Source of the DNA: Escherichia phage kaaroe
Length of the DNA: 64,000 nucleotides
Sequence record: MN850574.1
Direction: 5' to 3' (one strand)
Both the position numbers and the translations under genes were made by a program. Numbering within the stretch: position 1 is the stretch's first letter; every line of letters begins with the position of its first letter. Below the pieces are notes generated by a model, which saw only the letters and a program-made list of their open reading frames with translations, was not told where the DNA came from and searched no databases. Positions 8,337-48,330 of the stretch are shown here, piece by piece.

Positions 8337-10445
8337 ATGAAAATGCATATTGATAATGAAGAAGTATTTGGCAGTGACTTGAGCGGTGCGGTTGATTTTT
8401 CACTGAAAGCAAGTAGCAAGGCTTTTATGGTGCTTTCTAAGAACACTTATCAATATTGTGAACGTGCTTGCGTCCGTGAGTATTCGTGCAATGCTACCGA
8501 CACTCACAAAGAAGCCGGAACCTTAGATCGTCCGTTTGATATTCATTTACCGACTGCAATCGAACCGTATTTTTCTGTGCGTGATTATGGTACTGGTATT
8601 CCGTCTAAGAAAGAATTAGAACAACTGTTTACGGTTTACTTTGAATCAACAAAAGACCAGACTAATGATTATATCGGATCTTTTGGTTTAGGTGCGAAAT
8701 CTGCTTATAGCTATACCGACACCTTTACAATCGTAAACTATTACAATGGTCGCGCTTATGGCTTTACGGCATTTGTGCAAAACTCTATGCCGAAAATGGT
8801 GCAGATTTTCGACGAACCGACCTATGAAGACAACGGTCTGAAAATCACTATTCCGGTGAAAGAAAAAGACATTCAGACATGGCATCGAGAAGCGCAATTT
8901 GTACTGCGTCATTTTGGGGAACACAAACCTAATATCAATGCAATCGAAATTAATTATTTCCCTAGCTTTGATAATTATTATGTGTGTAATGGGCGTGATA
9001 ACGATTCCTATGTAGTATATGCAATCATGGGTAAGATCCAGTATCCGATCCCGTATGAATATGTTCGCGGAACATGGTTAGAAGCTGTAAACCGCCAGCA
9101 CCAGACCATTTACATTAATTTTGAGTTGGGTGATCTGGACCTTATGCCATCGCGTGAAGAAGTTCACTTGTCAATTGAGACTAAAGCGAACATCGAAAAA
9201 CGCATTGCAGAAATCAATGAAATGATGTTGGAAAAGGTTAAAGAAAAGATCGCCAACATTAAAACAGAGCGTAAACTTGCGCAATTTATGAGCGAGTATT
9301 CATCGACTCAACGCAATATTATTAGCAAGATGGGTAAGATCGGACAATGGGACGATCCGGTAGCAATCTATAATAAGTTTGTTAATGCGGGTAAAGATTC
9401 GCCTAATGACGTAGAAGGTCAGGTGTATACTCTGTATCGTACTCGTCACACAATAAGTAAATTGCGCCCTGCTTTCGTTAGCAGTCAATACAACATTACG
9501 CATTTTGTATGGATGCATAAAGAAGATATTACGTGTCTTATTGATGATACCGATAAACCGAAACTGCGTGCACTGACTCTTAACGGCATGGTCCAGGAAT
9601 ACGGCATCAATAAAAAGGTACTGGTGTTCCGTCAGAAAAACGAAAAACATATGGAGACTTTCGAGTACATCAAACAGTATTATGATGATTCTGAAATGAC
9701 CGTGATTAAAGTGTCTGAGGCCGATGATCTGCGTGCTAAAGCAGTTAAACCGGAGAAGACCGAGCGTACACAACGTGAAGCGACTCCTAAGCTGCCTAAC
9801 GTGTATATCATGGAAAAGATTGGTGACAGTTGGCATAAAACCAGCCATCACATGAAAGCGGCAGAGATTCGCGAGTTATCAGGCTTGCACATGTTCCGCG
9901 TAGGTGATGCATTCGAAAGCCGTAGTCGTAAATCGATCCATAGTGAAAATACATTACACACGGCGCTTGACTACTTCGGGGTAACAAAGTATATTATTAC
10001 TCGAAACGAGACACAAAAATATCTCGTTGACGAACAATTGGAATGTGCGCTAGAATTTGTTCGCGGTAAGCTGGCTGGTCTGGCTAAGAAGGTTAAGACC
10101 AATCATCTGGGGTATGGCGAATATCTGGGTGTGATCACTATGTTGTTTCATGACGATGAACTAGAACGCTGTGTTCCAGAATTTATTGACAGACTGTACG
10201 GTCGTCATTATAATAAAGAGGTTTCCAAGTTACTCCTTCGTACTCGTTGGATTATGGACGCAGAAACTAAAAAGATTTGTGATGAAAAATTCACGGTAGC
10301 AAACGAACGAATTAAAGCAGTTTGTGCGAAGTTTAAAGAGAATAGCCCGTTACTGTATGATATTGTAGATAACTGGTATCGTATTCTGCATAATGACAAA
10401 CGCGCACAAGACTTTATGAAACTGGTTAAGAATGTTAAATTTTAA
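8337..10445 (+). CDS. rIIA: rIIA membrane-associated protein (GHKL ATPase-like)
   Basis: 702 aa (T4 rIIA ~725); N-terminal HATPase-like motifs (DYGTGIP, GSFGLGAKSAY); followed by rIIB. Confidence 0.85.
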   Translation: MKMHIDNEEVFGSDLSGAVDFSLKASSKAFMVLSKNTYQYCERACVREYSCNATDTHKEAGTLDRPFDIHLPTAIEPYFSVRDYGTGIPSKKELEQLFTVYFESTKDQTNDYIGSFGLGAKSAYSYTDTFTIVNYYNGRAYGFTAFVQNSMPKMVQIFDEPTYEDNGLKITIPVKEKDIQTWHREAQFVLRHFGEHKPNINAIEINYFPSFDNYYVCNGRDNDSYVVYAIMGKIQYPIPYEYVRGTWLEAVNRQHQTIYINFELGDLDLMPSREEVHLSIETKANIEKRIAEINEMMLEKVKEKIANIKTERKLAQFMSEYSSTQRNIISKMGKIGQWDDPVAIYNKFVNAGKDSPNDVEGQVYTLYRTRHTISKLRPAFVSSQYNITHFVWMHKEDITCLIDDTDKPKLRALTLNGMVQEYGINKKVLVFRQKNEKHMETFEYIKQYYDDSEMTVIKVSEADDLRAKAVKPEKTERTQREATPKLPNVYIMEKIGDSWHKTSHHMKAAEIRELSGLHMFRVGDAFESRSRKSIHSENTLHTALDYFGVTKYIITRNETQKYLVDEQLECALEFVRGKLAGLAKKVKTNHLGYGEYLGVITMLFHDDELERCVPEFIDRLYGRHYNKEVSKLLLRTRWIMDAETKKICDEKFTVANERIKAVCAKFKENSPLLYDIVDNWYRILHNDKRAQDFMKLVKNVKF

Positions 10446-16351: not shown

Positions 16352-17110
16352 ATGAAAAACATTATCGCTGCTATCGTTCTTTCTGCTACTGCTTTCGGTG
16401 CTAACGCTGCGTCCTTTGATTGCGCTAAAGCTACTACCAAATCAGAGAAGTTTATTTGTGCTAATGAGTCTATCTCCGCACTGGACTCTAAACTTCATGA
16501 GGTGTATGTTAAGGCTGTTAAGATTGATCCGTCTCTGAAACAAGAGCAACGAAACTGGAATAAAACTGTTCGTGATACAATGATCAATATAGGGCAGATT
16601 CAGCCACTGGAGGCTGTATATAACGCTCAAATCCAAAACTTGATGAATGTATTACCTAAAGAAGAAACCGCGTCAGAAAGCGATTCAGAGACTTCTGCGA
16701 AGGTTGAAGAAGAACAACCGAAACAGGAAGCAAAAGTGGTAGAAGAACCGAAGGTCGAAACTTTTACCTATCAATGTACCGTTCGTTATGAGTGGAGTAT
16801 GAAAGATGGAATTTCCACAAAAATTAAAGAGGCTCCACTGTATGCAAAATATGGAAACCAGCCAGGGGATCTTAAAGTAACCATTAAAAATGGGAAGATG
16901 GTTGATTTTGTATACACTGATGAATACAACGTACACAAAGCAAACGTACAAGAAACCGTTATGACTAAAGGCGGGTTTTATAAGAATGTTGGCAAGAAAG
17001 ATCTATATGAATACTCCGTTTTCGAACCAAACGACGGAACTATTCGATTTGAAAAACGTCATCCTACATTCGGTGGAGCAATTGATGTAGATCAATACGT
17101 TTGCAAGTAA
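16352..17110 (+). CDS. secreted protein with LprI/DUF1311-like N-terminal domain
   Basis: Signal peptide MKNIIAAIVLSATAFGANA; FDCAKA..FICANE..LD..L..VY...Q..W...RD pattern. Confidence 0.6.
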   Translation: MKNIIAAIVLSATAFGANAASFDCAKATTKSEKFICANESISALDSKLHEVYVKAVKIDPSLKQEQRNWNKTVRDTMINIGQIQPLEAVYNAQIQNLMNVLPKEETASESDSETSAKVEEEQPKQEAKVVEEPKVETFTYQCTVRYEWSMKDGISTKIKEAPLYAKYGNQPGDLKVTIKNGKMVDFVYTDEYNVHKANVQETVMTKGGFYKNVGKKDLYEYSVFEPNDGTIRFEKRHPTFGGAIDVDQYVCK

Positions 17111-18356: not shown

Positions 18357-18689
18357 ATGTTTAACTATGACAAATATGAATCATGGAAAGCGACCGAATT
18401 GAAAGAGGCAGCGCGGTTAATCACACCGCGTCTTTATCCGGTGTTGTTTAGCGCAGATAAAGTAACAAGGGAAGTAAACGAGGCGCTATCGGTTTTAGGC
18501 TATCTGATCGATAAAGTAGAGAAAACATCGGTATTCACAAATAGCGTAGAATATACCCGGTATCGAGTGTTTTTAGATTCCTTGCTCGTTGTCATTAAGG
18601 CACTAAATGATCATAACTACACCATGAACATGACGAAAATAATCGACGAAGCAAGAATTATGACAGAGAATATTTTCGGTAAATTTTGA
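18357..18689 (+). CDS. hypothetical protein (paralog of 18804-19127)
   Basis: Shares EVN.A.., AR...EN.(F/Y)GKF C-terminal motifs with the next-but-one ORF. Confidence 0.5.
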   Translation: MFNYDKYESWKATELKEAARLITPRLYPVLFSADKVTREVNEALSVLGYLIDKVEKTSVFTNSVEYTRYRVFLDSLLVVIKALNDHNYTMNMTKIIDEARIMTENIFGKF

Positions 18690-18803
18690 TTATGAAAGAT
18701 GATGAATCATTGAAAATTGCACTGGTTATGCTATTACAAGGTATAGAATTAGCAAACCACGAAAAAATGTTGAAACAACAGCGTGAAATTATGAGAGGTG
18801 ATT

Positions 18804-19127
18804 ATGATCGAGTTTGAAATTGACAACTTTCACGAAAAAGCAGAAGACCTAACCAAAATTTTGATTAGTCGAGGTGCATATAATACGAAAGATATTATAA
18901 AAGAAGTTAATGTAGCGATGGACGCGATCCGAAAGGAATTTAAACATATTTCAGCGATTGGAGAAAATGGTCATCTTGAAGATGTTGAGCTGGTAGCACT
19001 GCGACGCTATTACTTCTTTGTTGATTGCATCATTGATCTAGCTAAAAATTATAGTCATTACATGAAAGATATTGTAAAAGATGCACGTAAGCTGGCAGAG
19101 AATGTTTACGGGAAGTTTCCAGAATGA
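18804..19127 (+). CDS. hypothetical protein (paralog of 18357-18689)
   Basis: ATG 18804 after SD GAGAGGTG; similar length and C-terminal motif. Confidence 0.5.
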   Translation: MIEFEIDNFHEKAEDLTKILISRGAYNTKDIIKEVNVAMDAIRKEFKHISAIGENGHLEDVELVALRRYYFFVDCIIDLAKNYSHYMKDIVKDARKLAENVYGKFPE

Positions 19128-19375: not shown

Positions 19376-19402
19376 GAAGGGGAGGCCGAAAGGCTTCCCC
19401 TT
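19376..19402. terminator. bidirectional hairpin terminator between convergent genes
   Basis: AGGGGAGGCC-GAAA-GGCTTCCCCT between + ORF (stop 19372) and minus-strand holin (stop 19407), T-runs on both sides. Confidence 0.6.
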
Positions 19403-19406
19403 TAAG

Positions 19407-20063
19407 TTATCTAATCCTTCCGAGGATTCTGGCAGATTGATTGCAAAGAGTATCTAAATTCTCAATGTCAATATCCGGTTTATTCTTCCATGAAATGGCG
19501 ATACTACCAGAATAGACATTATCGAGATTGAATATAGGACAAGAATACATGAAACCTATATCGATATTCTCTAATTTCTTTTCTCTTGATGGAATATACT
19601 GGAAATCTTTATCGGTAAAATATGATTTACCTAAAAGATGCCTACGATATTCTTCACTCGTTTTATTGATAGGGAATCCGCCTAAATTTTTTTCATCGAT
19701 TGTGTGAGGTAGCTTTCCTTCATATGCCACCAAATCAACAAAATAGTTTAGGTTTTTCGGACGAAAACTAAAAACAGCAGAAAAATCGGCATCAGCCGAC
19801 ACATGAACTATCTGTAACTGCTCCTGTGCTGCATTATCAAAATTGCGGTCTTTCTCTACCTGGAGAATGTGAGCATAAGTCTCATAACGAGTCTCTTTAT
19901 AAAGCGCAAATAACTCGTTTTTACTATAAACGACAAATGCTAATATGGACAACACGACGGCAGCAAAAACACGAAGTACGAGCAACTCCGTGCTTTTAGT
20001 TGTGAAAATAGCGCGCAGGACATTTGAGATAGCAAAGTCTTTCCCTTTTTCAGAAACTTGCAT
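19407..20063 (-). CDS. t: holin (T4 gpt family)
   Basis: LEQLQIVHVSADADFSAVFSFRPKNLNYFVDLVAYEGKLP, MYSCPIFNLDN, ICNQSARILGR match T4 holin T. Confidence 0.93.
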   Translation of the reverse strand: MQVSEKGKDFAISNVLRAIFTTKSTELLVLRVFAAVVLSILAFVVYSKNELFALYKETRYETYAHILQVEKDRNFDNAAQEQLQIVHVSADADFSAVFSFRPKNLNYFVDLVAYEGKLPHTIDEKNLGGFPINKTSEEYRRHLLGKSYFTDKDFQYIPSREKKLENIDIGFMYSCPIFNLDNVYSGSIAISWKNKPDIDIENLDTLCNQSARILGRIR

Positions 20064-20096
20064 ATAATGCCCTAAGATAACTATGACAGTGTACTC

Positions 20097-20336
20097 TTAT
20101 TTAGGTAGTTGACTATCACTAGGTTTATCTTGCTCGTTACTATCTTCTGACTGATCTTTATTAAACTCCTTATAAAGTTCTTCCACAAAACGATCATCAA
20201 TTGGCGTATTGGTATAAGCCGCAAGACGACGAGCGCAATAGAAGAAAATTTTAGTGAGCATCTTTTCACTAATTAACTTTGACAATAATTTCATTCCGAA
20301 ATTAGACAAAGCACCAATGACGATATTATAGACCAT
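20097..20336 (-). CDS. hypothetical small protein between gene 37 and holin
   Basis: SD AAGGAGA; hydrophobic N-terminus; occupies the position of gene 38 but is only 79 aa. Confidence 0.5.
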   Translation of the reverse strand: MVYNIVIGALSNFGMKLLSKLISEKMLTKIFFYCARRLAAYTNTPIDDRFVEELYKEFNKDQSEDSNEQDKPSDSQLPK

Positions 20337-20376
20337 AGCCGTTTCTCCTTAGTAGTTCCCTTCCCTGGGAGTTTCC

Positions 20377-23139
20377 TTAATTCTTTTTAAGTTCCGCTAG
20401 TTCAGCTTTAACGGCATTCAATTCTTCGCTCATTTCCTGAAACGCCTTAATTAAAAGAGCGTTGACAGCAGAGTTAGAAATTGTTAAGATCTCTTCTGGC
20501 TTATCGGGATCGCCGATGTTAGAAGTTGTTACTGCTTCCGGTAATTCTTTTTCAAGATCCTGAGCAATAATACCAACTTCATGAGCAATGACAGTACGGT
20601 CGGTTAAAGATTTAACCTTGTCATAGGTGTATACCGTCAAGCGATTAACTTTATCAGTGGCATTCTCCTTATACTCTTCCTTGTTGATTTTAAGGCGAGC
20701 ATCAGAGCGAATGTAAACGTCGTTAAAGTTACCATTGCGTCCAGCTTGGAAATCGCCGTTTTTATAGAAGGTAGTATTAGATTCAACACCAGAACCTTTA
20801 ACATGAACTCGCCATGAACCTTCATTAAGAAGCATACCCAACGAGAATGTTACTGCACCTTGAACATAACGTTGCTTGATCAAAGGAACATATGTAGACG
20901 CATCACCACGGTCTAAACGTTGGAAAATAGGTGCTTTGACGTTATCATCATGTTGAGATGCAAAAGAACCAGCACCCGCAGAACCAGAATCTATAGTAAT
21001 GACGCTAGCGCCGCGTTGAATAGCATTACCAAAATTCAGACTACCGCCTACGTTAGCATCGCTTCCGCTATAGAAAGAACCTGCAACAGAGAACTTAACC
21101 GGACCAGTTCCACCCGCAGTACGTTCGGTATACCAATGATAACTTGTTGCATCCGTACATTCAAAAACTTGTTTTCGTGATTCATTACCCCATGTATGGA
21201 GACTAAATTGCGAAGAAGAACCACGGTTAGCATGGAATGTAATTTCGCCAGATTCTACACGCACAAATCCTTTAAATCGCGCAGTAATTTCACCGGTTGC
21301 CATTTTACGTTCAGTTGTGAAGTGTGCACCGCTATTGTCTTCAAACTGCAAAATGTTATCACGGGCGTTATTGCTATCACCCCAATGGTTGATTTTAAAG
21401 AAATCACGAGATCCTAATCGTCCACTAGAGAAATGAAGGAAACCTTTTTCTACATAAACATCACCCGTAAAACGAGCGGCTTTGCTTGCACGTTCTAACG
21501 TTAATGCAGCTTCGTTACCGTCACCGCCTAATTGAACGTTACCGGAAGTCAAATCGTAAATGAATGGTCGGTTGCCGTTCCACCCACCAAAACGATCATT
21601 TTCGGCAGTAGAAAGAAGATAAACTTTAGTGCCGTCATTACGCCAGAATGCACCATAATTACCAAAGATCATACGGTATGCATCAGAATTGGCAGCTACA
21701 TATTGACCATTAGTGTATACAATTTTGGTTGCACCTGCGCTTAAAGATACTTGACCACTTGCTTCTAGCTTAACAAAGTTTTTACCTTCGTCACTATACC
21801 ATTGAAAATCGTTGGTTTCTGTAGAACCAAAACCAAACCAGCCTTGACGTTTATTAGCCCCGTCTCGCTGATCCATATATTCAAAATAGTTACTACAACC
21901 AGTAGGACGCCACATACGAATCGCGTTATTGCCTTGCAGATGAAGTCTATTGACAAATAAACCATCACTACCAACAATTTTTAATACTTCTTTTTGGTCG
22001 GTGGAACCAGTAGCCAAACGATACACATCACCTTGAACAGTTTCATGCCATATTGTTTCCGCCGCACGACTGCGGAATTTACGCATATATTTTTTATTGT
22101 TGTCTGGTACGTTATTAAGGCTCACAATATCATAGGTTGCTTGTGAGTTATTATCAAACATCAACGTTCCGGCTTTGTTTTCTGTGTTGAACATCGTAAT
22201 AACACGAGCATCAAATTTAGTTCCGGTTGCTGGTGCAGTCGCCGAAAATTCAGGAACATCATAAACAGTCAATGCGACGTCAACAGTTTTTCCAAACTCT
22301 ACAATAACGTTATCGGTGTAACGACCATAGTTAACATAAATGTCATAGTTATCACCGGAAGTATTAATTGCAAATACTTCATGGACGTTCAAAGAATTTC
22401 GACGATATGCAGCAATAGTAACACCTTTAGGATTTCCATTCCCACCACGAATCACGATTTCAAGGAAATCCACCTGGTCGTAGGATTTAACATTAAATCC
22501 GTTTCCACCATAGATACGAATAAATGCCATTTTTCCTTGCTGGGGGATCATTGCGGTTGCAATCTTAAAGTAGCCACGAGTTGCGTCACCGGAAGGAACA
22601 GACATTTTAACGTTCTTAACAAACATACGGTCAATTTCTTGTTTGCTATAAACGTTCAATTCTCCTGGAGTTGGTTTATCACCTTCGTGATACATTTTAT
22701 AACTAAATGCTTTTTGACCTTCTCTATTATAGCCATAAGTTTCTACACGCGATCCAGTGTGCCCATACTGGAAAGTAAATCCTCGACCATGTTGGACACC
22801 GGAAGAGTGAGGAACGTTTAGCGTGAGTTCGAGAAGACCATCAAGACCATTGGTACGGAAAGCGCCAAAGTAGTTAAGATCTCTCGCTGTCTGATCTTCC
22901 AGATAGTTAGCGGTTTTACTTAAGATATAATTATTACCTTTAACCTTACCCGCCATTGTAACATCGCGGTCATAAACCGGAGGACAACTTAAATTGATAA
23001 TAGTACCGGAATCATTTTTAGTAAGAAGATATTGATCCGCAAGGTTGATTGCCAATTCCCCCGGATTCATCGTACTAGCATCAGGTTTACGACCTTTAGT
23101 GCTAGTGCGTTTAAATTGGATTCTGCTTAAATCTGCCAT
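20377..23139 (-). CDS. 37: long tail fibre distal subunit gp37 with C-terminal intramolecular-chaperone-like domain
   Basis: N-terminus MADLSRIQFKR..GELAINL and GAGSFASQ..ASTYVPLIKQRYVQG match T4 gp37; C-terminal 100 aa resemble S74-type autoproteolytic chaperone domains. Confidence 0.9.
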   Translation of the reverse strand: MADLSRIQFKRTSTKGRKPDASTMNPGELAINLADQYLLTKNDSGTIINLSCPPVYDRDVTMAGKVKGNNYILSKTANYLEDQTARDLNYFGAFRTNGLDGLLELTLNVPHSSGVQHGRGFTFQYGHTGSRVETYGYNREGQKAFSYKMYHEGDKPTPGELNVYSKQEIDRMFVKNVKMSVPSGDATRGYFKIATAMIPQQGKMAFIRIYGGNGFNVKSYDQVDFLEIVIRGGNGNPKGVTIAAYRRNSLNVHEVFAINTSGDNYDIYVNYGRYTDNVIVEFGKTVDVALTVYDVPEFSATAPATGTKFDARVITMFNTENKAGTLMFDNNSQATYDIVSLNNVPDNNKKYMRKFRSRAAETIWHETVQGDVYRLATGSTDQKEVLKIVGSDGLFVNRLHLQGNNAIRMWRPTGCSNYFEYMDQRDGANKRQGWFGFGSTETNDFQWYSDEGKNFVKLEASGQVSLSAGATKIVYTNGQYVAANSDAYRMIFGNYGAFWRNDGTKVYLLSTAENDRFGGWNGNRPFIYDLTSGNVQLGGDGNEAALTLERASKAARFTGDVYVEKGFLHFSSGRLGSRDFFKINHWGDSNNARDNILQFEDNSGAHFTTERKMATGEITARFKGFVRVESGEITFHANRGSSSQFSLHTWGNESRKQVFECTDATSYHWYTERTAGGTGPVKFSVAGSFYSGSDANVGGSLNFGNAIQRGASVITIDSGSAGAGSFASQHDDNVKAPIFQRLDRGDASTYVPLIKQRYVQGAVTFSLGMLLNEGSWRVHVKGSGVESNTTFYKNGDFQAGRNGNFNDVYIRSDARLKINKEEYKENATDKVNRLTVYTYDKVKSLTDRTVIAHEVGIIAQDLEKELPEAVTTSNIGDPDKPEEILTISNSAVNALLIKAFQEMSEELNAVKAELAELKKN

Positions 23140-23185
23140 TTTATAAAATCCTTAAACGGTTATTAGAATAATATTATTTAGAAAA

Positions 23186-23204
23186 GCGGGGATTGTCTCC
23201 CCGC
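23186..23204 (-). terminator. hairpin (possible attenuator) between genes 36 and 37
   Basis: GCGGGGAGACAATCCCCGC followed by TTTTC on minus strand. Confidence 0.4.
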
Positions 23205-23209
23205 TAAAA

Positions 23210-24700
23210 TTAGAAAGTACCAAAATCAATCACCGCATTAAGTGGAACTGCGCCAACATCAGCCGGAGTAGGTTTATTACCTTCATGATAAAGCTGATAG
23301 CGGTCCACGGTTTGAGTATTGTTTCTAGAACGGAAAAACACGACCTTTGAGTCGTGGGTGATCCCCAGCTTTTCGGTCCCTTTAATATCACTAATGCGGT
23401 GAATCATAGCAGTACCATCAGCACCGCTTAACGCCGCATAACAGTTATCCCCGTTATAGTTAGTTTTAGCTGTTCTAACACCGTTTGCAGCCGGAACAGT
23501 TAACGGTCCTGTCATGGTATCGCCAGTGACGTTAACATAGCGAATATCAGCCAATTTACGGTGATCTACATAGTTCCATGCAGTCCATGATTCATTAGAA
23601 CACGAACGCCAGCACATCGGATGGTCAATAGATTCAGGATAATACACCTGAACAATTCGACGAGTACCAACAGCATCTTCTGGGCGATATACCATCAAAA
23701 CGCCGTTATAATAGCTATCAGACGGTTTATTAGTACCTGATCCAGCATTTTCCACACGATAGATACCGCGATTAATAAGAGTGTTCCAATCAACGTTTCC
23801 AATGATGGTTGGATTTGCTACCATTGATTTTCTCTCAAAGTAGCTCAAACGAACCAATTCATTAGGACCAGCAGGATCGTTTGTCGCCAACATTCTAGGC
23901 GCTTGCAAGTTACCTTCCATAATATCACCAGCACGTTTAACCTGTGCATCATTGGTGACATTGCCTAGCCCAACATCGGCTTTAGTTGGTTTATTGTTGG
24001 TGTGATAAAAACGACCTTCTCTGCCATTAACAAAAATGGTAGGCTCATCTTTACTTCGGAAGACCAACGTGTCAAGAACGTTACCATAATAGATCTTAGT
24101 CGCATCAAAATTAATTAAATCACGTTCCCTTGCAATTAATTTCGAATCAACCGATAGTTTAACAGTGACAGTGTTTAAATTATATGTTCCTGTGAGGGTA
24201 TCACCGCGACGAGACACCAAATCTAAATCATTATTCGTTGGTTTATTAACAGGGCTATAGACGCGTTGACCTGTGTCTTTAATGGTTGTCCCTTCGATAG
24301 TCCCTTTAGACTTAAATTCGCCCGTTGTGGTGTCAATATACGCCATAATAACGCCATCACGGGCATTAACAAAGCCGATTGACTTCCATGAATGCAAACC
24401 CCAGCTTACGCCGTCAAAATTAGCAGCGTCGCTCTGACCTTTAAAGATACCATTCTTTTTGGTTTCTCCAGCCGATGCGCTACCTACGCTTAAACCTTCC
24501 TCGAAATGAACTTGCTTTTGAAATGTGCCACCTTCGGATGCACTAACAGCATCAAAATCGGTAGCCGAAGGTCTATCAAAAGCGGTATAGATTTTATGAC
24601 CTTTGTAGAAAAGCTGATCCCCCGCTGGCTGGATCGTCAAGTTTCCTTGCGTCCAAATGGGAGATCCACCTACAGTAGATCCATATTTCAAATCTGCCAT
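23210..24700 (-). CDS. 36: long tail fibre subunit gp36 (extended, 496 aa)
   Basis: N-terminus MADLKYGSTVGGSPIWTQGN..PAGD matches T4 gp36 N-terminus. Confidence 0.85.
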   Translation of the reverse strand: MADLKYGSTVGGSPIWTQGNLTIQPAGDQLFYKGHKIYTAFDRPSATDFDAVSASEGGTFQKQVHFEEGLSVGSASAGETKKNGIFKGQSDAANFDGVSWGLHSWKSIGFVNARDGVIMAYIDTTTGEFKSKGTIEGTTIKDTGQRVYSPVNKPTNNDLDLVSRRGDTLTGTYNLNTVTVKLSVDSKLIARERDLINFDATKIYYGNVLDTLVFRSKDEPTIFVNGREGRFYHTNNKPTKADVGLGNVTNDAQVKRAGDIMEGNLQAPRMLATNDPAGPNELVRLSYFERKSMVANPTIIGNVDWNTLINRGIYRVENAGSGTNKPSDSYYNGVLMVYRPEDAVGTRRIVQVYYPESIDHPMCWRSCSNESWTAWNYVDHRKLADIRYVNVTGDTMTGPLTVPAANGVRTAKTNYNGDNCYAALSGADGTAMIHRISDIKGTEKLGITHDSKVVFFRSRNNTQTVDRYQLYHEGNKPTPADVGAVPLNAVIDFGTF

Positions 24701-24734: not shown

Positions 24735-24742
24735 TATTTATA
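24735..24742 (-). promoter_or_regulatory. T4-type late promoter (TATAAATA)
   Basis: Minus-strand TATAAATA about 35 nt upstream of gene 36 ATG. Confidence 0.7.
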
Positions 24743-24872
24743 GAATGTTAACAAAATATCGCTTCGCGACGTGCCGTAGGCACTGGCTATTTTTTAACCG
24801 AAACAAATTTCTATTATTCTAAAGATCTTTCTTCGTTTTGGTTACATTTTAACCAACTGTATAAAAAATAAA

Positions 24873-24896
24873 GCCGACCACATGGGTCGGCTTGTT
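24873..24896 (-). terminator. rho-independent terminator after gene 35
   Basis: GCCGACCCATGTGGGTCGGC hairpin followed by TTTATTTTTT on minus strand. Confidence 0.7.
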
Positions 24897-24903: not shown

Positions 24904-26043
24904 TTAATCAACATCGAACTCTTTAAAGTTGTTGGATGTGATGTGTTTATTATCTCTGGGTAGTTTAAGAAGACTCATTACAGGGTTAGTAAAATCACCG
25001 TTATCCTGAATATGAGTTGTTCTAACACCATTAACACCAAATGAAGTAGGACCAGTAGTTTTGACAACTCCACTGATCGGCGTTATTAGTATGTTTCTAA
25101 TTTTAACAATACCTTCATTGGAGTTGGTTGGATATCTGATACAACCAGTTACTACACTATCAACTCCTTCCGGTACGGTATAGACGGCTTCAAACTTTTC
25201 CCATTGGTCTTTTTTGCTGGCATTGTATCGAACACCAGTTTGATATTGTCCATCGGTGAAGTAGTTGTGATAGAAACGCGCTGTTACGTTGGCTGCGGCT
25301 GCGGCACTATCACGGAACAATTCAAAGGATATTGATAGTTTGTCACCTGCCTTTATGTTAAAATCCTCAAGTGGGGCGCTGGTCTCATCATGAGGCCATT
25401 GTATTAGCTCGAAATGTTCGGCATCTTCGCTAACATACTCAACCGGATAATCTAAAAATCGTTGTGGTGTTCCTGTTATAGCAAGATCATCTATAGTATC
25501 ATAGACTTTCTCAATTTGTATAGATGAATCTTGTCCTTCCCCGTGAGTTGCTTGCATCCCTTCGCACACAATTTTACCCATTTTAGTAGAATAAATTGCT
25601 GCATATGATACACGAGGCATTTGCTGTAGCAAAATGTGATTCGGGAATGATACAGATCCCAGCTTAGAGAATACACCATCACTGATCGGATCTGCAAACA
25701 ATTCTCCATGCGTTGCCATCGCAATGATATAGTCACCTTTCAGCAAAGAAAGATAATCACGCATTGCCAAAACAGCACCGCGACCATAGAATACCTTTTC
25801 TTCGTGTAGTTGTCCAGTTGGAGTAAGAACTTTAAAATTTAGGCCATTTTCATAGCCAGTGCCAACGATCTCCACTCCATTAAATCTAATCCTTGCTGGT
25901 TTGGTAGAATCCGCATTAGATCCGCGCACTTCCAGCTTATACATCACAGAGTTATTTTCTGAAATGCTGGTAAATGTCGCAGAGTCTTCGTCGAAATGCG
26001 CAAACCTAATTCCAGTGTTGCGTAATTCTATATCTTGTGTCAT
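24904..26043 (-). CDS. 35: long tail fibre hinge protein gp35
   Basis: SVMYKLEVRG, VSYAAIYSTK, SFGVNGVRT resemble T4 gp35; position between 34 and 36. Confidence 0.75.
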   Translation of the reverse strand: MTQDIELRNTGIRFAHFDEDSATFTSISENNSVMYKLEVRGSNADSTKPARIRFNGVEIVGTGYENGLNFKVLTPTGQLHEEKVFYGRGAVLAMRDYLSLLKGDYIIAMATHGELFADPISDGVFSKLGSVSFPNHILLQQMPRVSYAAIYSTKMGKIVCEGMQATHGEGQDSSIQIEKVYDTIDDLAITGTPQRFLDYPVEYVSEDAEHFELIQWPHDETSAPLEDFNIKAGDKLSISFELFRDSAAAAANVTARFYHNYFTDGQYQTGVRYNASKKDQWEKFEAVYTVPEGVDSVVTGCIRYPTNSNEGIVKIRNILITPISGVVKTTGPTSFGVNGVRTTHIQDNGDFTNPVMSLLKLPRDNKHITSNNFKEFDVD

Positions 26044-26076: not shown

Positions 26077-29000
26077 TTAGTCTTCCCAGATAAAGTCTAC
26101 GGTACGAGTCAGATTATTGGCGATGATTTTAACATTACCAACTTTGATCCAATCACGAACCGTCATAGAGTTCATTAAACCACCTTCTGCAACTACTGCC
26201 CCGATTTCCTGAGCGGTAGGCTTATTCTGTTTGGTGTAAATTTCACCCCATGCTGTCCATTGACCACCAGTACCGGAACGGATATAATGTTTATGAGTAC
26301 CATCAGGGGACCAAAGCTGGGTAAGCCCGTCCGCGTCAGTACCCCATTGCATCAGAGTACCGTTTTTCTTCTCTGGATAAGTTTCTTTGATGTTCTGGGT
26401 AGTAACTCGCATATTCCAGAAACCGATGTTACCGATTGCCGGAGCGGTTGCCGCGCTAGCTTCATGCTTAACAGAAACAATAGGCGCATTATCCATAGTC
26501 AGCTTACCGACCATTGTATCGCCAGCATTCTTAACAAACTGACGGTTAAGAACTTCGTCGGCGTTTCCTGCGTGTACGATCTGATATTTCTGTCCGGCGA
26601 TCTCTGTAGTTAACGTTTGATGACCTGCCTTGATGTTAACACTTCCACCGTGACCGATATTCAGCATACCATCTGAGGAACGAGTCATTGCCGGATTAGA
26701 CTGGTCAACTATGTATAAACCGCCTTGTTTCGCATACAGGTTACGACCTGCAATAAAGTCTCTATATGCTGTCGCGTCGCCATTGTGTTTCATAGCAAAG
26801 GCGTAATGCTCAACGACTCCACCATCATTGATTTTACCGAAAGCGATAGCATCACTATCAACAACTTGCGCTGTTCCAGTACCACCAACGATAATAGACC
26901 AAGAGTTTTTCATGCCTTCCGATGCGGTTGTGCCATGCAGAGTAATTCCGGTGTGACCGTCAACTCCACGCTCACCCAACACCAGATGACCATTACTCGG
27001 AACATCGGTCGAGTTCTTAGTCACAGACAGAGTTTCAAAGGAACCTGATTTTAAGCACTCTAAATCGCCCTTCACGTTAACGTTTTTATTAAACGTGTAA
27101 TTGCTCTCTATGGTCTGATCAATGTCTCTACGCGCCCATTTAGCGGCCTCTACGTTACCCAATTTCAAACTATTCTGAGCGGTTGCCATCTTAGGTAAGA
27201 AATTAGCAAGTGCGTAGTTTAATCCTTTAGGGGTAACAGCAATTCCGTCATGCTGGTAGTTTCCTAGTTCTTGAGTAGAACCTTGCAGATTATCACCAAC
27301 AAAACAGTTTTCCTGAGTAGCAACTTTCAAGAAGCCACGACGCGCTTCGGTTGCTTTCCATGTATCCTCTGTCTGAACAACATATTTGAAGTTCTTCGGA
27401 GAAATTGCTACATTGTCCATAATACCAGCCACGGTTTCGGCTTGAGTACCAACTCGGATAATACCTTCTTTACCTTCGGTGGCCTTTTTGCCTTGCAGCT
27501 TTTTAGGCGTGATGATTGTAGTATCATCTTGACCAGCGTCAGTAAGCTGAGTAGTCGCAACTTTAGCGACACCTTTTGTATCTTCGGTTGCATCCAGACC
27601 GCTGATCATGATACCTTGCCACAAATCACCAGTAAGGTTAAGCCCCTGAGTCGGATCTACTTTCAAACGCTGTGCATTCTCAAAGAAGGTTTTAATCTTC
27701 AATGGGGTAGAAATGCGATCATCGTCACGACCTGCGTCAAATTCCGGCTGAGTTGCAATTTCTGCTAAACCGTGTAAAGTTTCCGTTGCGCGGCGAGTAT
27801 GCAACTTTTTAGGCGTGATGATATGGTTATCACTTTGACCTAAGTTTGTTTCTTCCTGAGTTGCAATTTCAGCGATACCAGTGCGCGATTCGGTAGCAGT
27901 ACGTTTCGTTAGCGTGCGAGTCGTGATGAGTAAAGCATCTTGCTGGGTTGATTCTGTAGCCCCTTGCACTTCCGCGTCAGTTGCCAGATAGCCAACACCA
28001 CGGGAAGTTTCGGTCGCCTTGACTTCGTTGATGTTTTTTGGCGTAACAATTTTAGCATGGTCATTGATGTTATAGATCCCTGTACCAGCTTCGCCACGTC
28101 GAGCGGCAGCACTGCCGCCAGCCTGAACAATTTCAGCAATACCAGCGAGATCTTCGGAAGCGCGACGTTCTTCTAATTTCTTAGGAGTAATAGCGCGGGT
28201 ATCGTCTAAACCTTCATTGGTTTCGTGCTGGGTTGCAATTTCCATCACACCACGACGGGCTTCGGTAGCAACACAGTCATTTAACTTTTTAGGCGTAACG
28301 ATAACATCATCCAGGAAGTTGGAACCAGTATCTTGATGCGTTTCCGCTTGAGTCGCAATGCGAGCAATACCGCGTCGAGTTTCGTTGGCGGTTTTATTAG
28401 CCAGCATTTTTGGTGTTACTGCAACTTCGTCGCTAGGATTCTCTTCATGGTTTTTATTCGTTTCAGTTTGGGTAGCCAGTGCAATTACACCAACACGATC
28501 TTTACGAGTCGGATCTACTCGTTCTACAATCGGGTGAGCATGTGCCACCAACCAGTATTTCTTACCATCATCACCTTCTGAATAAGAGAACTCCAGATAA
28601 GGTACATAATCATTTGCAGCGTTGAAAGACAATTCAGATACTCCCGTCCATGTATCGGTCCCATTGAATGGGTACTCGCTACGCTTAGGAAACTGAACCA
28701 TGTTTTTCTGCATAAGGATTTTTGTATCCTCTGTGGCGGTGATAATACGGCAATTCTGGTTTCCGTTCATATACTGCATAGAAACTTGAATACGATCACC
28801 CGGCTCGACATTGGTCGGCAGCGTCAGAGTAACATCACGACCACCAAATACAGCAACATAGCTATTAGGTTGCAAGCGAGTGTCATCGATGATCGGTTTA
28901 AGACGAACAGACTGATCACCATCCCACAAACGCCATAAGTTTTCCGTCTTGTCAAAGATGAATACACCATGACCGCTACGCTTACCGATAATCTCTTTTA

Positions 29001-29817
29001 GACCGGACGTGCCAATTGATTGTTCTTCTGCGTGCTCATGAACTTTAACCGTAACGTGGTTGGTTGCGGTTAATCCGTCAAGGTCTGTAGTCTGGATCAT
29101 GTCGCCATTGTTGGCAAACTTAGGAAGCACTAAGGTAATATTACCCAACGAACTACGACGAAATACCTGATCACCATTCTGCATTTGAATAGCATCAATC
29201 GCTGGCTGTGCGTACACACCGCGTGGCTCTGTTCCTGTCTGATAAACATGCCAACGATTACGAACAAAGATGAAATAGTTCATTGCATACGGGGTAGTGC
29301 AATACCATTTTCGGTTGTACACATTACCGTTATGGTAAAACTCATGTCCTGTACTCAAGAACGATAATTCGTTAACACCACACTTGCCACCGATATCTTT
29401 TACTGTTATAGTGTCTCCCTCTGCTGGTTTAGTTGGCATAGAGAAAGTCAAGTTTGCAAATTGACCATCTGCTGCGATATAATCACCAGACTGTAAAGGA
29501 GTATCACCGGAAGTTGCTGCAATATAATCCCAACGTGGGTCCGTGCGCAGTGCTTGCCATTTAGTCGGGTCAAAATCACCTGCTGGCTTTGTGATATCTT
29601 CTTTTGCATAATACGGACGGTTTTGATAGATTGTAGTTCCGTATTGATCATAACCGCGAGTTGTGTCATACTGAGTAATACCATTATGGTAATTGAAAAA
29701 TTCAACGTTGACCGCATCGGTGTTGACATTCTTATCAGCCAATGCTACATTGACGACCTTTTCATTACCAGCGTCAAAGCCAAATGTGGCCTTGAAATGT
29801 TGAGAAAAATCTGCCAT
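26077..29817 (-). CDS. 34: long tail fibre proximal subunit gp34
   Basis: KPAGDFDPTKWQALRTD, LTLPTNVEPGD, FPKRSEYP, RRGIARIATQ, ISTPLKIKT and C-terminal VKIIANNLTRTVDFIWED match T4 gp34. Confidence 0.93.
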   Translation of the reverse strand: MADFSQHFKATFGFDAGNEKVVNVALADKNVNTDAVNVEFFNYHNGITQYDTTRGYDQYGTTIYQNRPYYAKEDITKPAGDFDPTKWQALRTDPRWDYIAATSGDTPLQSGDYIAADGQFANLTFSMPTKPAEGDTITVKDIGGKCGVNELSFLSTGHEFYHNGNVYNRKWYCTTPYAMNYFIFVRNRWHVYQTGTEPRGVYAQPAIDAIQMQNGDQVFRRSSLGNITLVLPKFANNGDMIQTTDLDGLTATNHVTVKVHEHAEEQSIGTSGLKEIIGKRSGHGVFIFDKTENLWRLWDGDQSVRLKPIIDDTRLQPNSYVAVFGGRDVTLTLPTNVEPGDRIQVSMQYMNGNQNCRIITATEDTKILMQKNMVQFPKRSEYPFNGTDTWTGVSELSFNAANDYVPYLEFSYSEGDDGKKYWLVAHAHPIVERVDPTRKDRVGVIALATQTETNKNHEENPSDEVAVTPKMLANKTANETRRGIARIATQAETHQDTGSNFLDDVIVTPKKLNDCVATEARRGVMEIATQHETNEGLDDTRAITPKKLEERRASEDLAGIAEIVQAGGSAAARRGEAGTGIYNINDHAKIVTPKNINEVKATETSRGVGYLATDAEVQGATESTQQDALLITTRTLTKRTATESRTGIAEIATQEETNLGQSDNHIITPKKLHTRRATETLHGLAEIATQPEFDAGRDDDRISTPLKIKTFFENAQRLKVDPTQGLNLTGDLWQGIMISGLDATEDTKGVAKVATTQLTDAGQDDTTIITPKKLQGKKATEGKEGIIRVGTQAETVAGIMDNVAISPKNFKYVVQTEDTWKATEARRGFLKVATQENCFVGDNLQGSTQELGNYQHDGIAVTPKGLNYALANFLPKMATAQNSLKLGNVEAAKWARRDIDQTIESNYTFNKNVNVKGDLECLKSGSFETLSVTKNSTDVPSNGHLVLGERGVDGHTGITLHGTTASEGMKNSWSIIVGGTGTAQVVDSDAIAFGKINDGGVVEHYAFAMKHNGDATAYRDFIAGRNLYAKQGGLYIVDQSNPAMTRSSDGMLNIGHGGSVNIKAGHQTLTTEIAGQKYQIVHAGNADEVLNRQFVKNAGDTMVGKLTMDNAPIVSVKHEASAATAPAIGNIGFWNMRVTTQNIKETYPEKKNGTLMQWGTDADGLTQLWSPDGTHKHYIRSGTGGQWTAWGEIYTKQNKPTAQEIGAVVAEGGLMNSMTVRDWIKVGNVKIIANNLTRTVDFIWED

Positions 29818-29845: not shown

Positions 29846-29853
29846 TATTTATA
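29846..29853 (-). promoter_or_regulatory. T4-type late promoter (TATAAATA)
   Basis: Minus-strand TATAAATA about 30 nt upstream of gene 34 ATG in the divergent 34/rnh intergenic region. Confidence 0.7.
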
Positions 29854-33942: not shown

Positions 33943-33970
33943 TTGACATGTTGGCGAGGTAATGTATAAT
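33943..33970 (+). promoter_or_regulatory. sigma70-type promoter
   Basis: TTGACA-16-TATAAT, then SD GGAGGA and ATG 34001. Confidence 0.55.
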
Positions 33971-34000
33971 GAACTCATCGAAACAACGGAGGATAAAAAT

Positions 34001-35245
34001 ATGAAAACTTACTTTGCAAAAGATGTTTGTTATATTATCAAAAATAAATCCGTCTCAAAAACACCAGAACATTACGAGAATCGCTCAATAAATTATGCAT
34101 TGTCTCATGGTTTCGTTTATTTGGGGTTTATTGGAGAATATTCTGGATGCCAAACCTTGTCAAATTTTGAATGTAAAAGACATGGAACGTTTGCGGTCAG
34201 AGTACAAAATCTAAATCATGCTAAACATGGTTGCCCAAAATGTGCCATTGAGGATAGGGCAGAAAAAAGAAAATTGAGTATAGAAAAGATTTATAACGAC
34301 ATAAATCGAATCTGTGACGAGAACGGAACTATAGAATTAACAGAAATTAAAGGTGGGTATAAAACAACAAAAACACGAAATTTATTTTTTAAATGTAAAT
34401 TGTGTAATGGCATGTTTAATACATCACATGATCATTTAAAACGAGGTCAAGCATGTCCAAAATGTCGGTATAAAAAAATTTCTGTGTGTAATACTAGAAA
34501 CCAACTTGATATTGAACTTGACATAAAAATAGAATGTAAAAAAAGAAAAACCGTTGAATTTGTAGAATTTGAAAATGGATATTGCAGATACAAGTCAAAA
34601 AATTTAATAATGAGATGTTTGCGTGGACACGGAAATTACACAACAACAGCAAACGACTTTTTTAAGGGACGTGGTTGTCCTACATGCGGAGGAACGAAAA
34701 GACTAACAGAAAAACAAGCATCTGAACAAATGATAAAAGAGTGTGAAATTAGAGGTTATGATTTTTTGGGATTTTTTAATGGGTATAAAAAGTCGGCAGA
34801 ACCTAATGCAAAATTAAAATGTAAACGCAGTGGGGTAGTTTTTTATACATCACACAACAATTTTATGAAAGGACAAAACTGTAAGTGTTGCTCTGAATTT
34901 GGATATAGAACAACGAAATCTGGTGTTTTCTATGTACAGAAACTGTTAGAAAATAATATTTTTTGTGGTGTTAAATTTGGTGTAACCAATAGAACAACAA
35001 AAGAACGAATTGGAGGTCAATCTCGCCTTTCCAAATTCGACCACGAGATCTTTTATGAACTTACTTTACAAGACGGTCAAAAGATCTTAGACTTAGAGAA
35101 CAAGATCAAGGAAGCGATGAAAGGTAAAACTTCCTATATCTCAAAAGAAGATATGCCGGATGGCTACACAGAAACAGTAGCGCCGTCAGAATTGAGCACT
35201 ATCATGTATATCGTAAAAACTTTTGAAAAAGAGTTGACAGCGTAA
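34001..35245 (+). CDS. multi-zinc-ribbon protein with C-terminal GIY-YIG/T5orf172-like domain (putative homing endonuclease)
   Basis: Four repeats of HG.F...N...GCPKC-type CxxC ribbons; C-terminal GVFYV..KFGVTNR..R motif; inserted between genes 32 and frd. Confidence 0.6.
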   Translation: MKTYFAKDVCYIIKNKSVSKTPEHYENRSINYALSHGFVYLGFIGEYSGCQTLSNFECKRHGTFAVRVQNLNHAKHGCPKCAIEDRAEKRKLSIEKIYNDINRICDENGTIELTEIKGGYKTTKTRNLFFKCKLCNGMFNTSHDHLKRGQACPKCRYKKISVCNTRNQLDIELDIKIECKKRKTVEFVEFENGYCRYKSKNLIMRCLRGHGNYTTTANDFFKGRGCPTCGGTKRLTEKQASEQMIKECEIRGYDFLGFFNGYKKSAEPNAKLKCKRSGVVFYTSHNNFMKGQNCKCCSEFGYRTTKSGVFYVQKLLENNIFCGVKFGVTNRTTKERIGGQSRLSKFDHEIFYELTLQDGQKILDLENKIKEAMKGKTSYISKEDMPDGYTETVAPSELSTIMYIVKTFEKELTA

Positions 35246-45222: not shown

Positions 45223-45228
45223 TAATAA

Positions 45229-45252
45229 GCGGGGCTAGTTCCCCGCCTTTTG
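45229..45252 (+). terminator. rho-independent terminator
   Basis: GCGGGG-CTAGTT-CCCCGC followed by CTTTTGTCG. Confidence 0.6.
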
Positions 45253-45266
45253 TCGTTGGGGGTAAT

Positions 45267-45590
45267 ATGTCAAAGCTGATATACATTGTTATCATCTCTG
45301 TGTTGCTAGGGGTAGGTGGTAATATGTGGTGGGAAAATAAAAAGGAGGTAGATCGACTGAATCAGGAATTTACAGAGTATAAGAAAAAGACAGATGAAAA
45401 GATGAAGGTCGTAGACTCACTACAAAAGGAGATGTACGGAATAAGAACTAAGTTTGCAGAAGAACAAAACAAAGCAATGAAAGACGCTACACGAGGCTAT
45501 GTAGTAGCACAAAAACCAAAGTTGGTAGAGAAACAGCTTAATGATTCATTTAAGGAGTTTACCGAAGAATTAAAGGAGGCTACTAAATGA
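45267..45590 (+). CDS. putative i-spanin (type II membrane protein with periplasmic coiled coil)
   Basis: N-terminal TM LIYIVIISVLLGVGG then K/E-rich helical region; adjacent to pseT as the T4 spanin pair. Confidence 0.5.
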   Translation: MSKLIYIVIISVLLGVGGNMWWENKKEVDRLNQEFTEYKKKTDEKMKVVDSLQKEMYGIRTKFAEEQNKAMKDATRGYVVAQKPKLVEKQLNDSFKEFTEELKEATK

Positions 45591-47120: not shown

Positions 47121-47141
47121 TTAATATGTGAGGATTATATT

Positions 47142-47955: not shown

Positions 47956-47996
47956 TTCATCATTAAACTGTATTGATTTGAAGAGGTAATAAAATT

Positions 47997-48320: not shown

Positions 48321-48330
48321 TGATTTTAAA

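Follow-up and report, generated by a model that had tools for sequence, protein, structure and literature searches.

Gene 37 of an RB49-like coliphage encodes a predicted self-cleaving chaperone domain and is followed by a homologue of the PM2 lysis factor gp l

Introduction

The distal tail-fibre locus of Escherichia phage kaaroe raises the question of which protein recognizes the receptor. Gene 37, coding for the distal subunit of the long tail fibre, ends in a chaperone-like region, and the slot of gene 38 holds only an ORF for 79 aa, followed by the holin gene t. A preliminary description of this DNA had concluded that the fibre trimerizes with the help of its own domain, that a gp38 adhesin is absent, and that receptors are bound by a tip made of gp37 itself. 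We analyzed the locus within a 64-kb stretch of the phage genome, hereafter the window. The reading we favour, to which we assign a probability of about 85%, is that gp37 is made as a 920-aa precursor with a self-cleaving S74 chaperone, that its exposed end docks a gp38 encoded about 55 kb away, and that the 79-aa ORF encodes an accessory lysis factor and no substitute for gp38.

Results

A megablast search with the 64-kb window returned Krischvirus genomes as all of its top DNA matches, and on sequence the window is assigned to an RB49-like Krischvirus. The locus, in which distal long-tail-fibre genes meet lysis genes, has the standard arrangement of such coliphages, which has already been published. 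Gene 37 (20377..23139, minus strand, with its stop codon at 20377-20379) encodes a protein of 920 aa including the chaperone domain, and matched phrog_1699, 'long tail fiber protein distal subunit' (8e-152). Within its shaft, aa 418-528 (21556..21888, minus strand) form a Gp34_trimer-like domain (PF21446, 4.6e-28), which also matched the T4 gp34 structures 4UXE, 5NXF, and 5NXH and the Mu fibre 5YVQ. The 79-aa ORF (20097..20336, minus strand) is the only one between gene 37 and the holin gene, and the coordinates and ORFs given in the preliminary description were reproduced. The ATG of this ORF is preceded, at a distance of 7 nt, by a strong ribosome-binding site, AAGGAG. Directly downstream, gene t (19407..20063, minus strand) encodes a T4-type holin (PF11031 Phage_holin_T, 4.5e-61; phrog_860 holin, 5e-88) with one hydrophobic segment at aa 23-48, as judged by hydropathy.

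The transcriptional layout was inspected on the same strand. A hairpin terminator (24893-24871) follows gene 35, and an exact match to the T4-type late promoter box, TATAAATA, is located upstream of gene 36 (24735..24742, minus strand). No terminator-like site was found between the gene 37 stop codon and the end of t. The count of late-promoter motifs in the window was not above chance, so that it is from its position that the box is taken as the probable start of a late transcription unit comprising g36, g37, orf79, and t.

The chaperone-like character noted earlier for the gp37 C-terminus was borne out by a match of aa 812-871 to PF13884 (Peptidase_S74, E 1.4e-11), which scored 44.9 bits against a cut-off of 22 and covered profile positions 1-58 of 58. 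The domain constitutes the last 109 of the 920 residues (aa 812-920; 20380..20706, minus strand), C-terminal to the fibre passenger of gp37, and is predicted to be removed after trimerization. In an alignment spanning aa 793-918, the gp37 C-terminus was matched with the chaperone-domain part of S16 gp37 (PDB 6F45_A, E 2.4e-6), and weaker matches were obtained with the tail fibre 8JOV and the MYRF auto-processing domain 7DC3.

Inspection for a Ser/Lys dyad, suggested in the preliminary description, located Ser812 and Lys817 in 'NDVYIR-SDARLK' at the N-terminal boundary of the domain, the Lys five residues after the Ser. The motif S812-D-A-R-L-K817 (20689..20706, minus strand) was read directly from the sequence and positioned by the S16 alignment, and 'NDVYIRSDxRLK' is kept in every homologue that covers the stretch. 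S812 falls on the cleavage serine of S16 in the 6F45_A alignment. The known cleavage sites are DLNVS^SDRRIKK in S16 gp37 and DVYIR^SDGRLKI in fPS-phage (PMC7917993). Alignment to these two sites places the predicted scissile bond of gp37 between R811 and S812, which would yield a mature protein of aa 1-811 (20707..23139, minus strand) ending in AGRNGNFNDVYIR811.

If the S74 domain were instead kept uncleaved on gp37, it could block or replace the attachment of gp38. Such a state finds some room in the AlphaFold2 monomer model of the C-terminal 147 aa of gp37, which was built on a 16-sequence alignment and is uninformative at its low confidence (pLDDT 51.9, with a terminal helix at 116-146). 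However, the dyad is preserved together with the motif around it, and neither varies among homologues. Over the domain, identity to RB49 gp37 is 96-98%, and the RB49 domain is self-cleaving according to the literature (PMC9569957). Retention of the domain thus appears very improbable. The S74 domain with its dyad makes self-assisted trimerization followed by self-cleavage the best reading of this region, and to that extent the earlier proposal of a self-chaperoned fibre stands; its other half, with gp37 as the tip, does not.

Compared with RB49 gp37, the protein is a mosaic, being 61% identical overall and 920 aa long versus 979 aa. Residues 600-800 diverge strongly from their RB49 counterparts (18-50% identity); there, the match is with FL38 and MIZ6. 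Identity to FL38 gp37 reaches 98-100% over aa 551-920, and identity to MIZ6 gp37 96-100% over aa 651-811. The end that cleavage would leave, NFNDVYIR811, is the same as the fPS/T2-like motif (PMC7917993) and as the ends in RB49, FL38, and MIZ6. As a whole, the tip motif DVYIR^SD(A/G)RLKI differs very little from the one in gp38-using T2-like Tequatrovirus phages (PMC7917993). Because aa 700-800, just ahead of the tip, are only 18-30% identical to RB49, it is FL38 and MIZ6, and not RB49 itself, that support gp38 docking on this fibre.

We then searched for gp38. Tblastn with Phi1 gp38 gave no match in the 64-kb window at E<=10, and among the window ORFs of at least 120 aa none was a Gly-rich ORF of the gp38 type. 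The reported absence of the adhesin therefore holds for the window, but it does not hold for this type of genome: all of the listed Krischvirus genomes, Phi1, RB49, MIZ6, and FL38 among them, have a GP38 gene at a distance of about 55 kb from g37, and tblastn detected it in the listed genomes. The Phi1 gene lies at 44989-45765, close to rI / rI.-1, and its product matches PF05268 GP38 (1e-70) and Gp38_N (PF21721, 4e-18), as does a 261-aa protein of MIZ6 with the same values. In FL38, gp38 is encoded at 161725-162510 and g37 at 104377-107166; FL37 and FL38 are both listed among Krischvirus phages encoding gp38 (PMC12032242). By synteny with Phi1, g38 is expected about 35 kb beyond the start of the window. 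Since 64 kb of the genome is covered, the gp38 of this phage itself is deduced from its relatives and not seen.

These results bear on the model in which the phage has no gp38, gp37 folds via its own chaperone domain, and the cleaved end of gp37 is the receptor-binding tip. A gp38 homologue was indeed not found in the window, the S74 domain is real, and many other phage fibres with S74-type chaperone domains bind their receptors directly. Nevertheless, a gp38 gene is present in all close relatives, FL38 and MIZ6 with their near-identical gp37 tip among them, so that in each of these phages another gene does code for a gp38 homologue. It occupies a distant, conserved locus, which Phi1 synteny places outside the window. 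The motif NDVYIR|SDxRLK is, moreover, common to T2-like phages that use gp38. In RB49, gp38 attaches after the gp37 chaperone domain has cleaved itself, and host range maps to gp38, where the mutations E230K/Y231S are located (PMC9569957); mapping of host-range mutations to gp38 was reported by Golomidova et al. In T2/S16-type fibres the chaperone domain and gp38 occur together, cleavage creating the docking site (PMC7917993), and an S74 domain therefore says nothing about the absence of gp38. A fibre without gp38 is almost certainly not what this phage has, and the claim that gp37 itself is the tip is unsupported. Docking of gp38 on cleaved gp37 is the preferred reading.

What, then, is the 79-aa ORF that occupies the slot? 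It matched phrog_402 (5.2e-20), the same PHROG that is matched by gp l of phage PM2 (8.2e-14). In hhalign, the family profile of the ORF was matched to PM2 gp l with 94.4% probability (E 9e-8). The ORF aligns gap-free along the entire 51 aa of gp l. Homologues of the ORF with 61-92% identity bear a precomputed match to PF26925 (Phage_PM2_Gpl). In a pairwise BLASTP comparison, the ORF and gp l gave no significant match (E 0.5, the alignment containing a spurious gap of 19 residues), and it is on profiles that the homology is based. A Pfam search with the ORF gave only sub-threshold noise (TPR_LAA1_C, DUF1287); the Pfam copy used apparently lacks the PF26925 model. An exhaustive search of representative sequences also brought up giant proteins with repeats, one of 3836 aa (25 matched stretches) and others of 2491 aa and 1059 aa, which were rejected as spurious: they lack the T-x-T-P-x-D-D motif and match via 'SEKKIVKEKFFF...ACRARRAL' repeats.

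The ORF product is 97.5% identical to its RB49 counterpart. It has no transmembrane segment (maximal KD19 hydropathy 1.31, below 1.6), is modelled by AlphaFold as three helices, and carries an acidic tail. PM2 gp l (P18) is an outer-membrane-disrupting lysis factor whose mutant has a lysis defect (Krupovic et al. 2007, as cited in PMC6356626). In every tailed-phage record inspected, the gp l-type small protein is annotated as 'hypothetical', and we found no functional study of such a protein from any tailed phage in the literature.

We compared the gene neighbourhoods of the family, whose members occur in lysis cassettes of mutually unrelated phages. In the window the ORF directly adjoins holin t. 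The order in one metagenomic T4-like contig (L007) is a GP38 gene, the small ORF, and holin T; in another (L004) the small ORF and holin T come after a gene for a 524-aa fibre that has no S74 match on record. FelixO1-like phages have a tail fibre gene, the small ORF, and then a gene for an unrelated single-TMD protein that the depositors annotated as holin (phrog_4038, unknown function). In PM2, gp l comes after the holin gp k. Two Vibrio phages have the small ORF after the endolysin gene and no same-strand fibre gene adjacent; one of the two carries an inserted HNH gene. In PKM.Lu.22.1 the homologue is found among structural genes. The small ORF was also observed beside a fibre gene in both T4-like and FelixO1-like phages.

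In other T4-like phages, a fibre-accessory role of small ORFs that follow g37 was put forward as a speculation by Trojet et al. (PMC3157838), and the 79-aa protein could accordingly be a factor for gp37/gp38 assembly or attachment rather than a lysis protein. Its location directly downstream of a fibre or adhesin gene in Krischvirus, the metagenomic T4-like contigs, and FelixO1-like phages would fit such a role, as would the lack of a terminator between g37 and the ORF and the structural neighbours in PKM.Lu.22.1. Yet the ORF stays beside the holin gene regardless of the type of fibre (S74 fibre, Gp10_C fibre, or gp38), in the two Vibrio phages it follows the endolysin gene and has no same-strand fibre gene beside it, and the mutant phenotype of the homologous PM2 gp l is a defect in lysis. 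A fibre-accessory function is therefore unlikely, and a role in lysis, suggested by homology and gene context, is preferred for the 79-aa protein.

The kaaroe phage already encodes an i-spanin/o-spanin pair, and an outer-membrane-disrupting role of the 79-aa protein would therefore be redundant. We tentatively propose, at slightly less than even odds, that the gp l-type protein is a lysis component that is conserved but has gone unrecognised, and that it accompanies single-TMD holins belonging to three unrelated types: T4 holin T, the putative holin of FelixO1-like phages, and PM2 gp k. Its action in Krischvirus would be additional to that of the canonical spanins; it might, for example, modulate the holin or be a second factor that disrupts the outer membrane.

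Discussion

On the basis of these results, we propose that gp37 is synthesised as a 920-aa precursor whose last 109 residues, the Peptidase_S74 intramolecular chaperone, would nucleate trimerization of the fibre. By homology, the domain would then cleave itself between Arg811 and Ser812, with Ser812 as the nucleophile and Lys817 as the base. The exposed trimeric end, ...NDVYIR, would dock one monomer of a T2/S16-type gp38 adhesin, and this gp38 would be the actual receptor-binding protein. Its gene, not beside gene 37 in this lineage, should lie about 55 kb away, past the edge of the window. The 79-aa ORF encodes a member of the PM2 gp l (P18) family, a small, soluble, helical protein that may aid disruption of the outer membrane at lysis and does not replace gp38. 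Most likely the ORF shares a late transcript with holin t and serves as an accessory lysis factor.

Contrary to the preliminary conclusion, host range in RB49-like phages is to be predicted from gp38, whose gene is displaced, rather than from the tip of gp37. The presence of an S74 domain in gp37 is no evidence for a missing gp38, and a gene missing from a partial window is not a gene missing from the genome. The gp37/gp38 arrangement was already known; only the finding that the ORF occupying the slot of gene 38 is a member of the PM2 gp l family of lysis factors and accompanies holins is mildly new. With this assignment, a widespread hypothetical protein, unannotated in the Krischvirus and FelixO1-like records inspected, acquires a function that can be tested.

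Among known systems, PM2 gp l resembles the 79-aa protein in that neither has a transmembrane segment and both are encoded beside a single-TMD holin. They differ in gene order, the 79-aa ORF being upstream of the holin gene and gp l downstream, in the extra acidic tail of about 20 aa on the 79-aa protein, and in the canonical spanin pair of its host phage.

The chaperone domain belongs to the same PF13884 family as that of the K1F endosialidase endoNF and is likewise C-terminal to a trimeric fibre. The Ser-Lys dyad of endoNF presumably has the five-residue spacing seen in gp37. Peptidase_S74 is known from phage T5 pb1 as well and, among eukaryotes, from the auto-processing domain of MYRF. Unlike endoNF, gp37 has a T4-type fibre as its passenger and not a sialidase or tailspike, and a separate adhesin would be added after cleavage.

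With the gp37-gp38 fibre of S16 (PDB 6F45) and those of the T2/T6 type, the fibre shares a C-terminal chaperone domain with an SDxRxK motif. In those phages cleavage exposes a short beta-strand tip, at which a monomeric, polyglycine-rich gp38 adhesin docks. Gene 38 is directly downstream of gene 37 in S16, T2, and T6, but not here; with S16, furthermore, the identity of the chaperone domain is low (E 2.4e-6) and the tip before the cleavage site is unlike except for its last residues. The closest likeness in layout is with the Krischvirus phages RB49, Phi1, and JSE, which have the gene order g34-g35-g36-g37-small ORF-t and the same holin, the small ORF being RB49p252/'dc5' in RB49. They combine a self-cleaving gp37 chaperone domain with a g38 moved to a distant locus, and the kaaroe phage differs from RB49 in the mosaic shaft and tip of its gp37.

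Organization of the tail fibre and holin locus

The fibre genes and the holin gene t occupy a minus-strand block with a GC skew opposite to that of the flanking DNA, in the order 34, 35, 36, 37, a 79-aa ORF and a 218-aa ORF. PHROG and Pfam matches assigned gene 34 (26077-29817), gene 35 (24904-26043), gene 36 (23210-24700) and gene 37 (20377-23139, 920 aa), and the 218-aa ORF at 19407-20063 is a T4-type holin t (Phage_holin_T, E 4.5e-61). Between gene 37 and t, the "gene 38 slot" contains nothing but the 79-aa ORF (20097-20336, minus strand), as the preliminary description had stated. All megablast matches of 19400-23200 were to RB49-like Krischvirus phages, including MIZ6 (91% identity over 100% of the query), FL38 (95% over 93%) and RB49 (90% over 78%). 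These matches identify the window as part of an RB49-like "pseudo-T-even" coliphage, running opposite to the RB49/Phi1 numbering.

T4-type late promoter boxes (TATAAATA, minus strand) were located just upstream of gene 36 (24735-24742) and gene 34 (29846-29853); such boxes are no more frequent in the window than expected by chance, and these two were assigned as promoters by position alone. A strong hairpin terminator with a 9-bp stem and a T-run follows gene 35 (24871-24893, minus strand), and no terminator was found between gene 37 and the end of t. The boxes and the hairpin together suggest two late units, g34-g35 and g36-g37-orf79-t. Transcription of the second would begin at the box at 24735-24742, judging from its position, and would read through gene 36, gene 37, the small ORF and t.

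Several plus-strand ORFs elsewhere in the window were also inspected. Two adjacent ORFs at 18357-18689 (110 aa) and 18798-19127 (109 aa) resemble each other in their C-terminal halves (...DEARIMTENIFGKF and ...KDARKLAENVYGKF) and look like tandem paralogues that have diverged. In the 252-aa ORF at 16352-17110, a signal peptide and an N-terminal segment with Cys, similar by eye to LprI/DUF1311-type periplasmic domains, precede a Glu/Lys-rich linker. The 427-aa ORF at 33962-35245, in which a zinc-ribbon-like Cys-pair module recurs several times and the C-terminal segment resembles, by eye, T5orf172/GIY-YIG-like homing-endonuclease-associated domains, may represent a mobile insertion among the early genes.

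The chaperone domain and mosaic structure of gp37

The C-terminal chaperone-like domain noticed earlier in gp37 proved to be real. Residues 812-871 matched PF13884 (Peptidase_S74, "chaperone of endosialidase") with an E-value of 1.4e-11 and 44.9 bits, above the curated cut-off of 22 bits and across the whole 58-position profile. Residues 793-918 aligned with the C-terminal part of gp37 of Salmonella phage S16 (PDB 6F45, E 2.4e-6), and weaker structure matches were obtained with a phage tail fibre (8JOV) and the human MYRF auto-processing domain (7DC3). The Ser/Lys dyad, which the preliminary description had proposed to look for, was read from the sequence as S812-D-A-R-L-K817, right behind ...NFNDVYIR811, and NDVYIRSDxRLK was found in all homologues spanning the site. 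Profile, dyad and position all agree with Peptidase_S74. Cleavage of S16 gp37 at DLNVS^SDRRIKK has been aligned to DVYIR^SDGRLKI of T2-like Yersinia phages (PMC7917993). Since DVYIR^SDARLKI in the window is the same motif, cleavage between R811 and S812 is expected by homology. The gp37 precursor would thus trimerise with the aid of its own C-terminal domain, and S812/K817 would then cut at R811/S812.

Taken as a whole, gp37 is a three-way mosaic, matching RB49 at aa 51-150 (100%), MIZ6 at aa 351-500 (94-100%) and FL38 at aa 501-920 (98-100%), and no single database phage matched it from end to end. Identity to RB49 drops to 18-30% in the pre-tip region (aa 700-800) but reaches 96-98% in the chaperone domain. 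The shaft contains a Gp34_trimer domain (aa 418-528; 21556-21888, minus strand; PF21446, 4.6e-28) related to the T4 gp34 C-terminal region (PDB 4UXE, 5NXF) and Mu tail fibre S (5YVQ), which shows that domains have been shuffled between the proximal half-fibre and the distal one.

gp38 is probably encoded outside the window

The preliminary description had gone on to propose that the phage lacks gp38 and that gp37 itself forms the receptor-binding tip. Within the 64-kb window, tblastn with Phi1 gp38 gave no match at E<=10, and none of the ORFs was glycine-rich in the manner of gp38. In Phi1, however, gene 38 ("gp38 distal long tail fiber adhesin") is annotated at 44989-45765, far from g37 at about 151.6-155.6 kb. 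Because an rIIA-sized ORF occupies 8337-10445 in the window and Phi1 rIIA occupies 1-2109, window position 1 corresponds to about 10.4 kb of Phi1, and synteny would place g38 about 35 kb beyond the window edge. As a side observation, the displaced g38 of Phi1 lies only ~2.3 kb from rI.-1 and the lysis-inhibition regulator rI (44989-48390); the adhesin gene has left the side of the holin gene for the vicinity of the gene that regulates the holin, a shift of no established significance.

With Phi1 gp38 as query, tblastn detected full-length gp38 in the listed Krischvirus genomes, among them RB49, JSE, ECD7, Cognac, Whisky and GoldenSnicker. MIZ6, the closest relative, encodes a 261-aa protein at 123322-124107 (PF05268 GP38, 1e-70; PF21721 Gp38_N, 4e-18), with g37 at 65234-67990, and FL38 carries gp38 at 161725-162510 and g37 at 104377-107166. 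FL37 and FL38 have been described as gp38-encoding Krischvirus phages in which gp38 is not near the holin (PMC12032242). As gp37 of FL38 is 98-100% identical to that of the window over aa 551-920, and gp37 of MIZ6 96-100% over aa 651-811, the window's tip occurs in gp38-encoding phages. RB49 host-range mutants carry E230K/Y231S in gp38 (Golomidova et al., PMC9569957).

The earlier interpretation was thus half right: the chaperone domain stands, but neither a missing gp38 nor a receptor tip formed by gp37 is supported, as the listed relatives encode gp38 and RB49 host range maps to it. The error arose because only part of a genome was read. The S74 domain of gp37 and gp38 are not alternatives, because in T2/S16-type fibres the two work together, cleavage exposing the docking surface (PMC7917993). 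By analogy with the Krischvirus relatives and these published fibres, one gp38 monomer, encoded elsewhere, would dock at the ...NDVYIR end of the trimer and bind the receptor.

The 79-aa ORF belongs to the PM2 gp l family

A strong ribosome-binding site (AAGGAG) precedes the ATG of the 79-aa ORF by 7 nt. The ORF is 97.5-100% identical across several Krischvirus genomes, including RB49, where it is annotated as hypothetical protein RB49p252 and overlapped by "dc5". It matched phrog_402 ("unknown function") at 5.2e-20. For its homologues in the database, precomputed matches to PF26925 (Phage_PM2_Gpl) are on record; our local Pfam copy, apparently without that model, gave no such match for the ORF itself. 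Compared pairwise with gp l, the lysis factor of phage PM2 (NC_000867.1, 9922-10077), which contributes to outer-membrane disruption during lysis (Krupovic et al. 2007, cited in PMC6356626), the ORF gave no significant BLASTP match (E 0.5). PM2 gp l could, however, be aligned gap-free with the small-ORF family along its full length. A ten-member profile of the family gave 94.4% probability (E 9e-8) against PM2 gp l in hhalign, and PM2 gp l itself matched phrog_402 at 8.2e-14. The 79-aa protein has three predicted helices and then a disordered acidic tail and, like PM2 gp l, no hydrophobic transmembrane segment. Three giant repeat proteins (P0035, P0036 and P0040; 3836, 2491 and 1059 aa) also scored, by virtue of a much-repeated "SEKKIVKEKFFF...ACRARRAL" unit; the similarity was judged spurious, since they are without the TxTPxDD family motif and resemble translated repeat DNA.

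Gene neighbourhoods were compared. In PM2, gp l is immediately behind holin gp k; in Vibrio phage 1.036.O the small ORF is right behind the endolysin (phrog_315, 2.7e-47); and in the related Vibrio phage 1.177.O it follows a D-Ala-D-Ala carboxypeptidase and an HNH homing endonuclease gene (1901-2476; phrog_59, 1.7e-42) lying in the interval between endolysin and gp l-like ORF. In FelixO1-like mistaenkt and Panisse, a tail fibre gene precedes the small ORF and an unrelated single-TMD protein follows (holin according to the depositors; phrog_4038, unknown function). PKM.Lu.22.1 is the exception, in which the ORF sits among structural genes. One T4-like metagenomic contig has a 524-aa Gp10_C-type fibre with no S74 match on record, the small ORF and holin T; in another the order is GP38 gene, small ORF, holin T, so that the ORF coexists with an in-place g38. 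Most contexts point to lysis, not to the fibre, and the 79-aa protein is most likely an accessory lysis protein. The main rival reading, a fibre accessory factor, seems improbable to us. That gp l-type proteins are a conserved lysis component travelling with single-TMD holins is a broader reading, to which we give a probability of roughly 0.45.

A canonical two-component spanin pair adjoins pseT elsewhere in the window, with an i-spanin (45216-45590, plus strand; phrog_739, 1e-26; N-terminal TM helix) and a lipobox-bearing (FALSSC) o-spanin (45587-46039, plus strand; phrog_812, 2.4e-32). The listed spanin ORF starts are probably too far upstream, the true i-spanin start probably being the internal MSKLIY. 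Given this pair, the small protein, if it acts on the outer membrane, would not be the sole such factor; a role as holin partner is equally possible.

Relation to known systems

Pfam already places the small ORF in the PM2 gp l family (PF26925). This placement is absent from phage annotations and the PHROG label, and we found no paper discussing the family in either T4-like or FelixO1-like phages. The main finding, a gp37 with an S74 domain and a small ORF where an adjacent g38 would be, is already known, as it matches the published description of RB49-like phages (Trojet et al.; Golomidova et al.) and the S16 structural paradigm. The published RB49 arrangement is the same as that of the window, with S74 on gp37 and g38 not adjacent, and the S16 paradigm fits the window's gp37, whose SDARLK aligns with the S16 cleavage motif SDRRIK.
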